From an uncultured Dehalococcoidales bacterium (GTDB lineage Bacteria; Chloroflexota; Dehalococcoidia; Dehalococcoidales; UBA2162), in NCBI GenBank assembly GCA_964493985.1, contig CAZBQL010000002.1:2824-66823 (forward strand): a stretch of 64,000 nucleotides of DNA, read 5' to 3'. A program made the position numbers and the translations under genes. The notes under the pieces were generated by a model. It saw nothing but the letters and a program-made list of their open reading frames with translations. It was not told the origin of the DNA and did no database searches. Positions 40,321 through 42,675 of the stretch are shown in pieces (the stretch's first letter is position 1; the number at the start of each line of letters is the position of its first letter).

Positions 40321-42675
40321 TTAATCAGCACGACAGCCCAGAACGGCTCTTTTCACCAGAATTTTCGCTATCTGAATCTTGTATGTGTTATCCGGGAGTG
40401 GACATACATCTTCAACAGCAATATTGCCGGCTGCTTCGGCAGTAGTATCATCGATACTTTTTCCCGTTAAATACTGCTCTGCGCTGACAGCCCGGTAAGG
40501 TGTATTATATACTGCATTCAGGCATATTCTCGACGACGTAACAGTCCCGTTTTCAATCTCAAGCGCTACCGCGCAATTTAGTATTGAAAAATCGATAGAT
40601 TTCCTTAAGGCAAACTTGATGAATTTACTCCTCGCCCCGTTTTTCATCGGTGGTAACTCTATTTCCGTTATTATTTCATTTTCGATTATCGTCGTATTAT
40701 CGCCTTTTACCGTGAAGAAATTTTCCGCATCGATCACTCTCCGGGTGGTCCTGATTTTAACGTCAAGGGCTATAAGCACCGGGGCAATATCAGATGAGTT
40801 GACCGCCAGACAACCGCAGTTGAAACACCTGCCGGCTTCTTCCATTACCTTTTCCTTTTCCATGTTTCCGGTCTCTTCCAACTCTATATTCTTTACCCGC
40901 TCGGATACGGATAGTCCGGAGACATCGTTCCGGGCGGTCGGTCGCAGGTAATCCTTATCGAATTTTTCCGGATGGGTACTATCTGTATCCTGATATTTTC
41001 TAATTCCTTTCCCACCGAGATAACGGTCAATAGACTCGGCGGTATTCCTTCCTGAGGTTATTGCCTCTATAACTGTTGACGACCCGGTTACGCAATCACC
41101 TCCGGCAAAGATATTAGCGTCCAGTAAACCGTCCATATTGACTTCAAGACGGTCATCCGAACCAAGTAATTCCGCCGGTAAAATCGAATAATCCGGCACC
41201 TCGCCCGTAGCCTTTATAACAGCATCGTATTCGACAGTAAATTCAGAACCCTCGACAGGTTCAGGTCTTGGTCTGCCACTTTCATCGGTAGCACCAAGTT
41301 TCATCCTGGTACACTCAAGTACAATGTTCCCTTCTTGACCTTTTGCCGAAACCGGAAGTGTCAGGAACTGCATTTCAATGCTTTCCTCTTCCGCCTTTAT
41401 TATTTCCTCTTCGATCGCAGGCATTTCTTCGCGACTGCGACGGTAGAGTATTACCGGTTCTGCTCCCAGTCTCAAGAGAGTCCTGGCAACATCTATTGCC
41501 ACATTGCCGCCACCCATCACGGCTACTTTTTTCCCTGAAGATTCACCGATTATTTTATTATTTCTGAGGAATTCAGTACCCGAAACCATCAGTTCTTCGC
41601 CCCTTATTCCGAGGGGTCTCTCTTTCCAGGCACCCGTCGCCATGAATACGGCATCGTAATCTCCTGATATCTTCCTGATATCCTCGATTCTGCCGTCAGC
41701 AGGTCCTGTCCTGAAAATAATACCTGACTCTGCCAGTGCCGATATCTGTTTTTTTACAATATCTTTCGGCAGGCGGTATGGAGGGATACCGTACGTCAGC
41801 ACTCCTCCCGGTTCTTCCATAGCCTCGAAGACGGTCACGCTATATCCAGTCTTTCTGAGATACCAGGCGCATGAAAGTCCTGCCGGTCCTGAACCGATTA
41901 CGGCTACTGTTCCATTATTCTCTACTTCAGGAGGTCTATAAATCGACTTCGAATTCTCAAGGGCGTAATTGCCAATATACCTTTCGATATTCCTGATTGA
42001 TACGGCTTCGTCCAGTTCATCTCTGTTACAGACACTTTCACAGAAATGAGGACAAACCCTCCCGGTTATCGCCGGAAACGGATTCGAGTCCACTAGTATT
42101 TTTACTGCGCTGTCAATATCTCCCTCTCTCAGCTTACTCATGTAATCCGGGATATTTACGCCGGCAGGGCATTCGGTAACACATGGAGTATCATTCATCC
42201 TTGTGCTGCCGAAGATGGAATGATATCTACCTTCGCCGGCATAGGCATAACACCTTTTTCCGCCCTTTCTGATACAGTAAAACCTGTTATCCGGCACCCA
42301 GTAGTACCAGCACCTGTTACTCTGGCAGATATTTCCTGCAATCGTTCCCTGTTCCCTGATATGAGGTGAAGCGGTTTTCGCAGCAGCTTCGGCAAGAGCG
42401 GGATAGCTTTTCTTAACCTCTGAATTCCGGGCAATATCTTCAAGCCTGGTAAGAGCGCCGATTTTCAGGAAGTTGTCTTCTTCCTTTATATAGTCCAGTT
42501 CGTCAATTTTCTTGATGTTTATAAGTACTTCGGGATATTCGGGCAATATGTTATCTTTCATCTGCCCGAGAAGGTCAGTACCACCGGCTATTACTTTCGC
42601 TTTGCTTCCATATTCCTCGATCGCCTGGGCTGCTTCTTCAAGTGACGTCGCGTTAATATGTTTGAATCTCTTCAT
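40321..42675 (-). CDS. Molybdenum-hydroxylase FAD subunit (CoxM/HcrB-like) interrupted by a GltD-like [4Fe-4S]/FAD/NAD(P)H oxidoreductase module
   Basis: The N-terminus [14 protein letters not shown] is followed by a Cys-rich stretch [28 protein letters not shown]. GltD signatures follow ([56 protein letters not shown]). The sequence then returns to a CoxM middle/C-terminal domain (CFNCGC..., [25 protein letters not shown]). Confidence 0.8.
   Translation of the reverse strand: [784 protein letters not shown]

Follow-up and report, generated by a model that had tools for sequence, protein, structure and literature searches.

In the window analyzed here (the whole stretch of 64,000 nucleotides), a 784-aa open reading frame with an ATG start (positions 40321–42675, minus strand) encodes an FAD subunit of the CoxM/HcrB type that is split by a GltD-like module, as an earlier note had proposed and as domain scans, conserved junctions, un-inserted relatives, and the operon all support. 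The inserted module, as judged from its sequence, is circularly permuted and sits within an HcrB/PaoB-type [4Fe-4S] loop, between the third (C142) and fourth (C622) predicted Cys ligands. Together with two adjoining gene products, the nested subunit would form a self-contained three-subunit enzyme of the molybdenum hydroxylase family with its own NAD(P)H:iron-sulfur oxidoreductase, which probably works in the reductive direction, as an NADPH-driven dehydroxylase. This nested architecture has already been described for UxdC; the enzyme of the window belongs to that group as a distant relative and is not a new kind of enzyme, and the result for the 784-aa protein is mostly a correct annotation rather than a discovery.

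Dehydroxylases of the xanthine dehydrogenase family strip phenolic hydroxyls, a key step in the anaerobic breakdown of aromatics and in the gut conversion of dietary polyphenols. The electron supply of such enzymes is poorly understood, and the nested family offers a built-in answer, namely an NAD(P)H-oxidizing module that would be wired via three [4Fe-4S] clusters into the FAD/2Fe-2S/Mo chain.

Domain order and the inserted module

Every peptide motif quoted in the earlier note is present in the 784-aa translation, and the nested order of domains given there was confirmed by Pfam and NCBIfam scans. Four Pfam domains, all above their gathering scores, were found in nested order: FAD_binding_5 at residues 3–120 (profile positions 2–115 of 170, E 5.8e-37, 127.6 bits against a cut-off of 27), Fer4_20 at residues 162–241 (E 3.9e-24, 85.1 bits), Pyr_redox_2 at residues 256–542 (E 7e-30, 104.9 bits), and CO_deh_flav_C at residues 686–779 (E 1.2e-16, 61.1 bits against a cut-off of 25.5). 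The first and last of these, both over the gathering score, are the domain pair of a CoxM-type FAD subunit. A second stretch matching FAD_binding_5 was detected beyond the insert; at the level of NCBIfam, the HcrB model aligned to residues 3–155, and positions 116–258 of the XdhB model PRK09971 pick up again at residues 622–760. The GGTD (31–34) and T-x-x-G-N (111–115) motifs are kept in at least 142 of 144 full-length homologues, with the exception of T111, which is Thr in 124 and Ser in 20. Three parts can be delimited, all on the minus strand: an N-terminal CoxM/HcrB-type FAD part with the first three putative host [4Fe-4S] ligands (residues 1–158; 42202..42675), the inserted GltD/NfnB-like module (residues 159–621; 40813..42201), and the rest of the FAD domain with CO_deh_flav_C, which begins with C622 (residues 622–784 and the stop codon; 40321..40812).

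The insert has the composition of a GltD-like module, with Fer4_20 and Pyr_redox_2 domains, two dinucleotide-binding folds, and GltD/NfnB cluster motifs. Its FAD Rossmann fold carries the motif G261-x-G-x-x-G266 and its NAD(P)H Rossmann fold the motifs G388-G-G-N-x-A393 and Y411-R-R; G261/G263/G266 and G388/G390/A393 are invariant or almost so among the 144 homologues, and the YRR motif is common to the aligned GltD, NfnABC, and StnC-type sequences. Two [4Fe-4S] clusters are predicted from the Fer4_20 ligand set of C165, C169, C208, C212, C216, and E231, completed by C617 and C620 from the C-terminal end; all seven Cys are invariant (144/144), and E231 is kept in 142 of the 144. These ligand sets match the motifs reported for the clusters of NfnB, RCx2Cx4Cx3CPV and GRVCPQExQCx3Cx13Gx2ER, except that the first half-motif comes from the C-terminal end (PMC6405883). 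In the same way, residues 43–51 of E. coli GltD (QADRCLSCG), which are N-terminal in that protein, align with residues 613–621 of the nested subunit, with RCLSCG falling on RCFNCG (616–621). The full GltD-like unit of the earlier note is accordingly complete in its parts, but it does not have the canonical layout, being permuted relative to canonical GltD.

Close relatives of the insert are found among known GltD-like modules (NfnB/NfnI-L, StnC, the NfnA of NfnABC, and PRK12771), to which it aligns over 460 residues with 40–49% identity and with the same two Rossmann folds and cluster motifs; the insert differs in its placement, which is inside another domain and not in an end-to-end fusion. 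PDB chains matched by its sequence include NfnA of NfnABC (9n5u_A, 9bov_A), NfnB (4ylf_B), and StnC (8oh5_C). The C-terminal CxxCGC also has an aligned counterpart in the two NfnABC chains, and its position is spanned by the matches to StnC and PRK12771. The PRK12771 model (NCBIfam) was aligned to residues 161–622 through model positions 46–514 of 566, its N- and C-terminal extensions being missing from the insert; the score of 421.3 bits lies below the stand-alone family cut-off of 516, a value exceeded by P0157, a stand-alone relative (552.8 bits). When an AlphaFold2 model of the nested subunit was compared with the PDB by Foldseek, only GltD-type matches were returned, with TM-scores (normalized to target) of 0.70–0.72 for the insert against NfnB and NfnI-L. 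The model as a whole (pLDDT 70, pTM 0.48) is unusable for cofactor distances, since confidence is low for the domain arrangement and for the Fe-S loops, all of which are below 50.

The seam in the host [4Fe-4S] loop

Past the T-x-x-G-N motif, alignments reveal four conserved host Cys in the manner of an HcrB/PaoB-type loop, three on the N-terminal side of the insert (C122, C134, and C142) and one on its C-terminal side (C622). The alignments to HcrB (1rm6_B) and PaoB (5g5g_B) extend through this loop: C122, C134, and C142 fall on C122, C138, and C146 of HcrB, and the complete set falls on all four loop Cys of E. coli PaoB. We infer that these four residues ligate a [4Fe-4S] cluster. They are invariant across the 144 homologues except for C142 (143/144), whereas C117 is variable (138/144). 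The earlier note had read an N-terminal four-Cys stretch as an HcrB-type insertion; it named the right type of loop but not the right ligands, because C117 varies and the fourth ligand, C622, stands past the insert.

C622, like C122, C134, and C142, is also present in PaoB and in three un-inserted relatives (P0169, P0171, and P0261). The three relatives, of 324–331 aa and with 50–55% identity to both flanks of the nested subunit, are without the stretch 159–621 and have the segment HSxFGGS joined straight to GC(x)AVHPSD, which defines the seam. For one un-inserted relative, the top NCBIfam model was HcrB over its full length. Because a single cluster-binding motif comprises C165 together with C617/C620, the two ends of the insert would meet at a single cluster; C620 of the insert and C622 of the host are only two residues apart, so that the outer cluster of the insert would adjoin the host cluster and neighboring clusters would be bound. 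The insertion between cluster ligands 3 and 4 and the permuted insert with both ends on one cluster offer concrete targets for mutagenesis and structural studies.

Operon partners, family spread, and known relatives

Two genes directly upstream of the nested gene and on the same strand complete the set expected for a three-subunit enzyme of the xanthine dehydrogenase family. The first gene of the operon (45137..45640, minus strand) encodes a small subunit of 167 aa of the UxdF/HcrC/CoxS type, with two predicted [2Fe-2S] clusters (Pfam Fer2_2, E 7e-29, and Fer2), whose top NCBIfam models, neither of which reaches its cut-off, describe the gamma subunits of 4-hydroxybenzoyl-CoA reductase and of glyceraldehyde dehydrogenase. 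It ends 1 nt ahead of the gene for the large, catalytic molybdenum cofactor (Moco) subunit of the UxdO/HcrA/CoxL type (42682..45135, minus strand; 817 aa; Pfam Ald_Xan_dh_C, MoCoBD_1, and MoCoBD_2), which in turn is separated from the nested gene by 6 nt. The best solved relative of the large subunit is the alpha subunit of 4-hydroxybenzoyl-CoA reductase (1rm6_A), to which it aligns end to end (residues 23–814 to 5–762, E 4.9e-53), and it reaches no NCBIfam equivalog cut-off. A scan of the operon for promoters and terminators gave weak consensus matches at most.

The gene order 2Fe-2S/Moco/nested subunit is conserved among homologue loci, and in one case (P0145) the Moco subunit is naturally fused with the nested subunit. 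Among 102 neighboring proteins at 18 loci, the only recurring families were short-chain dehydrogenases, MFS transporters, MobA-like transferases, and LysR regulators, at 3–4 loci each; this neighborhood enrichment gave no pathway assignment that would hint at a substrate, and no benzoyl-CoA pathway genes were identified beside the operon. As none of the 18 neighborhoods shares a partner gene with another, the enzyme appears self-sufficient.

A database survey for the same nested architecture, as suggested in the earlier note, returned 144 full-length homologues with 35–100% identity from at least five phyla, which form approximately 30 clusters at 50% identity and all share both junctions. Hosts include Dehalococcoidia, Actinomycetota, Clostridia, Desulfobacula, Syntrophobacterales, and Bacteroidales, with Sporobacter termitidis, Acetobacterium tundrae, and Enterocloster among the cultured Clostridia; the closest named homologue (69% identity) is from a Dehalococcoidales bacterium. 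The nested design is common in strict anaerobes. The electron-input subunit is far better conserved than its catalytic partner, which suggests a portable input module that serves many substrates.

The published counterpart is UxdC of the gut-bacterial urolithin 10-dehydroxylase uxdFOC, described in 2025 from Enterocloster asparagiformis as well as E. citroniae and E. pacaense (PMC12658268). Its architecture was deduced there solely from annotated domains and from an AlphaFold3 model in which two FADs are found at opposite ends, and a 4Fe-4S relay between the FADs was proposed by the authors (PMC12658268). By the published description, both the gene order (first the 2Fe-2S subunit, then the Moco subunit, and last a long FAD subunit) and the domains of UxdC (XDH-type FAD, 4Fe-4S, and FAD/NAD(P)) agree with those of the operon and the 784-aa protein studied here (PMC12658268). 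The operon studied here stems from another lineage. Full-length homologues in Enterocloster genomes are 41% identical to the nested subunit and differ in the NAD(P)H fold, CLE in the Enterocloster type standing in place of the YRR of the nested subunit. The large subunit shares only 24% identity with that of a retrieved Enterocloster nested operon, so a different substrate is to be expected, and a urolithin 10-dehydroxylase function is unlikely for the window enzyme. A homologue less than 44% identical in E. bolteae was reported to be without urolithin 10-dehydroxylase activity (PMC12658268). One E. asparagiformis homologue of 788 aa (P0288; 98% identical to the protein of locus L019, which in turn is 41% identical to the nested subunit) was considered as UxdC itself and rejected, as it is encoded away from ucd; for the same reason, its operon is probably paralogous to uxd.

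Two further known systems have no nested module. HcrABC of Thauera aromatica (PDB 1RM6) includes the solved chain that matches the large subunit best and, in HcrB, an alignable Cys loop, but HcrB has 324 aa and no GltD module, and the Hcr equivalog scores in NCBIfam are far below cut-off (alpha, 286.5 against 994.55; beta, 136.7 against 404.55; gamma, 161.4 against 257.8). E. coli PaoB (YagS, PDB 5G5G), annotated as the FAD-binding Fe-S subunit of PaoABC, shares all four loop Cys and a histidine equivalent to H152; it has no insert, belongs to an oxidative, periplasmic enzyme, and is only 32–33% identical over the flanks. A literature search for a link between Hcr and GltD or between Hcr and NfnB found nothing relevant, and a 2018 survey of molybdoenzyme fusions listed GltD fusions for the DMSO reductase family only.

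Electron path and competing readings

We infer cofactor occupancy, the order of the electron wire, its direction, and nucleotide preference from these comparisons. Electrons would pass from NAD(P)H to the FAD of the insert, through its two [4Fe-4S] clusters to the [4Fe-4S] cluster of the host loop, and from there to the CoxM-type FAD, the two [2Fe-2S] clusters of the small subunit, and the Mo cofactor of the large subunit; the pyridine-nucleotide port that the earlier note saw built into the Mo/2Fe-2S/FAD chain is thus supported at the level of sequence. In 4-hydroxybenzoyl-CoA reductase, reduced ferredoxin delivers electrons at the host-loop cluster, and in NfnB electrons exit to ferredoxin at the outer cluster of the GltD fold; the insertion would swap this diffusible ferredoxin for a covalent link. 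NADPH is favored over NADH by the conserved Y-R-R motif. NADPH would be expected to drive the loss of a hydroxyl group from a substrate that is aromatic or heteroaromatic, a reaction of the kind carried out by Uxd, Ucd, and 4-hydroxybenzoyl-CoA reductase. The reductive direction is favored because the tested member, Uxd, is a dehydroxylase, HcrA is the solved protein closest to the large subunit, and the best model of an un-inserted relative is HcrB. Against it stand the score of the HcrA model on the large subunit, which is below cut-off (286 bits against 995), and the potential of NAD(P)H (approximately −320 mV), which reduces less strongly than the ferredoxin on which 4-hydroxybenzoyl-CoA reductase relies.

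The same wire could also run in reverse, a possible but unlikely arrangement in which an anaerobic hydroxylase would carry out a water-derived hydroxylation of a heteroaromatic ring or aldehyde at Mo and NAD(P)+ would receive the electrons by way of the three [4Fe-4S] clusters and both FADs. Most characterized family members are hydroxylases, the XdhA and XdhB models score about level with the Hcr models, and every cofactor in the chain is a reversible carrier; the host loop leaves the direction unfixed, since the HcrB-type cluster also occurs in PaoB of an oxidative aldehyde oxidoreductase. However, hydroxylases that use NAD(P)+ normally react with it at the CoxM-type FAD of a subunit of approximately 290 aa, as exemplified by the nicotinate dehydrogenase FAD subunit (3hrd_C, 296 aa), which aligns only to residues 1–120, and the extra module would be redundant in such an enzyme. 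Moreover, the one nested enzyme with a tested function acts as a reductase, and the closest solved large subunit is HcrA.

A bolder version of the preferred, reductive reading, which we regard as improbable, would make the nested subunit a self-contained low-potential generator, with an NfnB-like FAD and a Glu-ligated proximal cluster coupled in series to an HcrB-type cluster and another FAD. NADPH would then drive a radical (Birch-type) aryl dehydroxylation at Mo with no need for ATP, for ferredoxin, or for a separate partner that bifurcates, in a Dehalococcoidia clade using phenolic substrates in anoxic sediments; if true, this would be a new coupling of pyridine nucleotides to very negative redox chemistry.

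It is very unlikely that the insert acts as an NfnB-like bifurcating flavoprotein, in which NADPH would reduce the insert FAD, one electron of very low potential would travel via the clusters to Mo to drive Birch-type dehydroxylation, and the other would pass to a high-potential acceptor. The insert is equally close to bifurcating NfnB/NfnI-L (4ylf_B, 5jca_L) and to non-bifurcating modules; E231 occupies the place of the proximal-cluster Glu ligand of NfnB, where StnC, NfnA of NfnABC, and YgfK have Lys, and R301, the equivalent of R201 in NfnI-L, is conserved. Neither residue discriminates, as non-bifurcating E. coli GltD has the same Glu (in IERY) and the same Arg, and the Glu/Lys difference was dropped as a marker of bifurcation. 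NfnAB also requires NfnA, with a [2Fe-2S] cluster and a second FAD, and no such second exit is encoded in the operon or among the neighbor families recurring in at least 2 of 18 neighborhoods; furthermore, the GltD-type modules in StnC are plain NADPH-to-cluster feeders.

We consider it highly implausible that the protein is a YgfM–YgfK fusion serving a selenium-dependent purine or selenate system of the YgfK/YgfM/XdhD type, although both share the functional idea of an XDH-family enzyme served by a module of the NAD(P)H type. In E. coli, the GltD-like YgfK and the CoxM-like YgfM are two separate proteins, with genes that lie beside that of the Mo enzyme XdhD. The fusion suggested in the earlier note holds at the level of superfamilies and not beyond: the YgfK core aligns over residues 164–632 with 32% identity, but its model scores 302.5 bits against a cut-off of 835.3, and YgfK has Lys in place of E231 and, unlike the nested subunit, possesses an N-terminal domain of 440 residues as well as a C-terminal region with Cys-Pro motifs. 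YgfM, a CoxM-type FAD protein without the Fe-S loop, matches over only 108 residues (33% identity), and the host part is of the HcrB/PaoB type and the insert of the PRK12771 type. The link to selenium that the note raised in view of a selenoprotein candidate 6 kb away found no support: the Se_sel_red_Mo model scored 188.6 against 1101.9, and the scanned open reading frames of the window included no counterparts of the E. coli cluster partners yqeB, yqeC, ssnA, ygeY, or hyuA and no XdhC- or SelD-type gene. The selenoprotein candidate itself, of the UGSC family, looks real.

Finally, an assembly or frameshift artefact fusing separate genes, the objection raised in the earlier note itself, is refuted by junction residues that are invariant across the 144 homologues, in addition to an unbroken reading frame, an identical protein in NCBI, homologues at 88%, 78%, and 69% identity from independent sources, and isolate genomes that carry the same architecture.

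The nested subunit and its insertion seam

The gene for the 784-residue nested subunit (40321-42675, minus strand, ATG start) closes what the common strand and short gaps mark as a tight three-gene operon: the small 2x[2Fe-2S] subunit (45137-45640, minus, 167 aa) lies directly upstream of the Moco subunit (42682-45135, minus, 817 aa; gap of 1 nt), which lies directly upstream of the nested subunit (gap of 6 nt). Opposite the Moco subunit gene runs a 578-aa ORF (42658-44394, plus), taken to be a shadow ORF and no gene because it overlaps that well-supported gene. All peptide motifs quoted in the earlier note are found in the translation, and the Pfam scan returns the nested order it predicted, with four domains well over gathering score, namely FAD_binding_5 (residues 3-120; profile positions 2-115 of 170, with a second stretch further on), Fer4_20 (162-241), Pyr_redox_2 (256-542), and CO_deh_flav_C (686-779). 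Its observation and core interpretation, a CoxM/HcrB-type FAD subunit split by a GltD-like NAD(P)H module, are correct. The seam is located by NCBIfam models: the XdhB model halts near residue 119 and restarts at 622 (model positions 116-258), the HcrB model reaches residue 155, into the Cys loop, and the GltD-type model PRK12771 spans residues 161-622.

Three representative proteins from outside the window (P0169, P0171, and P0261; 324-331 aa) have no such middle and are 50-55% identical to both flanks of the nested subunit. Comparing their un-inserted junction ('...RFHSVFGGS-VEGGCYAVHPSD...') with the window junctions ('...RYHSIFGST[RMNDTPC...AGRCFNC]GCLAVNSSD...', brackets enclosing the insert) defines the insert as residues 159-621. 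C122, C134, C142, and C622 are kept in both nested and un-inserted proteins, and each has an aligned counterpart among the four cysteines of PaoB from E. coli, annotated in its database record as an FAD-binding Fe-S subunit. The first three are also aligned with C122, C138, and C146 of HcrB, which together with C155 serve as the cluster ligands in the crystal structure; 'DRC155YA' of HcrB would correspond to 'GGCYAV' of the un-inserted proteins and hence to window C622. The alignments thus place the insert within the predicted cluster-binding loop, after ligand 3 and before ligand 4. The four-Cys stretch to which the earlier note had pointed does not hold as the ligand set, as C117 varies (present in 138 of 144 homologues; missing in PaoB) and the fourth ligand is not reached until 480 residues downstream.

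A rough neighbour-joining tree built on flank sequences, without support values and without P0261, puts P0169 and P0171 within the nested clade, beside the window's group. Flank identity to close nested proteins reaches 60-61% for P0169/P0171 and 56% for P0261, compared with 34-51% between the window protein and distant nested clades. This placement and the higher identity to close nested proteins hint at a clean secondary loss of the module, or at repeated gain.

The inserted module and its proposed electron path

The insert can be aligned over about 460 residues with NfnA of NfnABC (9n5u_A), 9bov_A, NfnB (4ylf_B), StnC (8oh5_C), NfnI-L, and glutamate synthase beta, and the modelled insert domain gives a target-normalised TM-score of 0.70-0.72 on NfnB and NfnI-L. 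Its nearest stand-alone relative, the representative protein P0157 (560 aa, 49% identical), is over the PRK12771 cut-off. NfnB carries two cluster motifs, RCx2Cx4Cx3CPV and GRVCPQExQCx3Cx13Gx2ER (review, PMC6405883). The second is whole in the window protein (GRVC208-PHF-C212-ESV-C216 ... E231-R); only the second half of the first occurs at the N-terminal end of the insert (PC165-VTE-C169-PA), its first half being found at the C-terminal end (R-C617-FN-C620-G). Since BLAST aligns the N-terminal 'QADRCLSCG' of E. coli GltD (residues 43-51, ahead of its C55) with window residues 613-621, the insert is a complete but permuted GltD module. The permutation is probably older than the insertion, because the C-terminal CxxCGC is also aligned in the NfnABC chains 9n5u_A and 9bov_A, and matches to StnC and PRK12771 run through its position, the motif itself being seen only in the NfnABC chains. 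As both termini of the insert would give ligands to one cluster-binding motif, they should meet in space, which is the geometry required of a domain inserted into a loop; likewise, a single glycine is all that separates C620 of the insert cluster from C622 of the host cluster, so the two clusters would have to be neighbours.

The ferredoxin-like rule for CxxCxxxxCxxxCP motifs would allot the seven insert cysteines to two clusters, and the same rule, together with the analogy of NfnB, whose outer cluster passes electrons to ferredoxin, suggests that the one with C617, C620, and C165 is the outer one. We infer that electrons would pass from NAD(P)H to the FAD of the insert, then through a proximal [4Fe-4S] (C169, C208, C212, E231), the outer [4Fe-4S] (C617, C620, C165, C216), and the host [4Fe-4S] (C122, C134, C142, C622) to the CoxM-type FAD, and from there via two [2Fe-2S] clusters to Mo. 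Signature residues of both FAD sites and of the NAD(P)H fold are kept in 142-144 of the 144 homologues. The neighbourhoods of 18 loci (102 proteins) share no recurring accessory gene, which would fit a self-sufficient enzyme of three subunits; the only recurring neighbours, at 3-4 times each, are short-chain dehydrogenases, MFS transporters, MobA-like transferases (involved in Mo cofactor maturation), and LysR regulators. The motif Y411-R-R (residues 411-413, window 41437-41445), which follows the second Rossmann strand and recurs in the aligned GltD, NfnABC, and StnC sequences of NADPH type, is found in 128 of the 144 homologues and suggests that the window type prefers NADPH. Fifteen of the 144, including the Enterocloster type (locus L019, 6001-8367), have C-L-E instead; these possibly use NADH, and the change from Y-R-R to C-L-E may be a switch in nucleotide preference.

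Distribution, relation to uxdFOC and reaction direction

At least 120 full-length proteins (744-799 aa, same Pfam set, 57-100% identical) were found among the matches listed by a word-indexed search, the named ones coming from Dehalococcoidia and Chloroflexota, and an exhaustive search of 50%-identity representatives gave about 30 more full-length clusters at 35-51% identity. When one genome per species was scanned, matches with full coverage turned up in Dehalococcoidia, Actinomycetota, Desulfobacula, Syntrophobacterales, Bacteroidales, and many Clostridia (among the latter the isolates Sporobacter termitidis DSM 10068, Acetobacterium tundrae DSM 9173, and Enterocloster lavalensis KCTC 15153), so that the architecture proves widespread. 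The order small, large, nested is kept at every locus examined, and when 144 full-length homologues are aligned, the two junctions and every candidate cofactor ligand prove invariant or almost so. With the junctions kept across these homologues, isolates included, the joined gene is not the assembly or frameshift artefact that the earlier note had considered. NCBIfam holds no model naming the nested family, and no PDB chain combines CoxM-type and GltD-type modules. A natural single-chain fusion, the representative protein P0145 (1730 aa), joins a Moco subunit (28-744) to a nested FAD subunit (906-1726).

The window feature is a distant member of a recently noted architecture, and its main value is as a clear case in which to study how electrons reach such enzymes. 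The uxdFOC operon, described in a paper of November 2025 on urolithin metabolism in Enterocloster, agrees with the window operon in gene order and domain content (PMC12658268). According to that paper, the AlphaFold3 model of UxdC has one FAD at either end, the authors propose a 4Fe-4S relay from distal to proximal FAD after 4-hydroxybenzoyl-CoA reductase, and function was shown via expression in Clostridium sporogenes, the electron donor not being part of the tests (PMC12658268). The window protein is matched to UxdC as a homologue by this published description and not by sequence. Where exactly the module is inserted, how the ligand set is split, and that the insert is permuted are points absent from the paper's passages on UxdC, and literature searches found no further papers on the nested family. 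A nested three-gene operon on an Enterocloster asparagiformis metagenome contig (L088, 7185-12367) is flanked by TetR and MFS genes, away from ucd; not being next to ucd, this homologue is probably a paralogue, and E. asparagiformis seems to have at least one nested operon beyond the published uxd.

By analogy, we favour the reductive direction for the window enzyme, because the sole nested-family member with functional data is a dehydroxylase, the best solved relative of the large subunit is 4-hydroxybenzoyl-CoA reductase alpha (end-to-end alignment, E 4.9e-53; quinoline oxidoreductase, 1.8e-46), and the un-inserted relatives match the HcrB model best. These grounds are indirect: PaoB has the same cluster loop in an oxidative enzyme, and XdhA models score no lower than Hcr models. 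The window large subunit is only 24% identical to that of the Enterocloster nested operon, compared with 41% for the nested subunits, which points to the electron-input subunit as the conserved part and the catalytic subunit as the variable one. A bifurcating, NfnB-like insert has a low probability: E231 occupies the position at which, according to the Stn structure paper, glutamate ligates the NfnB proximal cluster and non-bifurcating StnC has lysine (as do NfnA of NfnABC and YgfK), but both that Glu ('IERY') and the Arg are shared by E. coli GltD, which does not bifurcate, and an NfnA-like second exit is absent. Glu/Arg was accordingly rejected as a bifurcation marker.

YgfK, selenium and the genomic surroundings

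The suggestion that the nested subunit resembles a fusion of YgfM and YgfK has a basis only at superfamily level: YgfK shows 32% identity across the GltD core, yet its model gives 302 bits against a cut-off of 835, and the likeness to YgfM dissolves into a weak match of 108 residues to a protein without the Fe-S loop. Counterparts of the genes flanking E. coli ygfK/ygfM/xdhD were absent among the window ORFs scanned. The UGSC-family selenoprotein candidate noticed 6 kb away (32706-34499, minus, in-frame TGA at 34176-34178) looks real: the TGA stands where the U-G-S-C motif has its U ('...IYGVGD-TGA-GSCTY...'), and read-through yields a single 597-aa protein with no further stops and takes the Pfam UGSC score from 34.5 bits (profile 1-92) up to 77.5 bits (profile 1-144). 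Nothing ties this candidate to the nested enzyme, and the selenium link finds no support.

The local context of the operon indicates no pathway, the genes nearby encoding three short-chain dehydrogenases, a phosphotriesterase-family hydrolase, an AMP-forming CoA ligase, and an MFS transporter. Directly upstream of the operon, three genes (45929-51429, minus) encode a Pat-like protein (889 aa, an NDP-forming acyl-CoA synthetase fused to a GNAT acetyltransferase) and a two-component system of a GAF-PAS histidine kinase and a LuxR-type response regulator, and may regulate it. On the plus strand (51957-57432 and 60922-63606), a NuoE-like protein (200 aa), a NuoF-like protein (626 aa), and a molybdopterin subunit of formate-dehydrogenase type (986 aa) whose N-terminus is NuoG-like together resemble a formate dehydrogenase that is NAD(P)-linked and possibly bifurcating. 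A second copy of the catalytic subunit (894 aa) follows, separated from the first by genes for a GAF histidine kinase and LuxR-type regulators. A large alpha-glucan gene cluster (787-16976 and 25804-27939, plus) encodes a GlgE-like maltosyltransferase, a 1146-aa alpha-amylase-family protein and more of that family, a 4-alpha-glucanotransferase, a branching-enzyme-like protein, a GH57/DUF3536 protein, and a glucan phosphorylase, and two PEP-utilising enzymes are encoded at 18195-20606 and 22701-24977.
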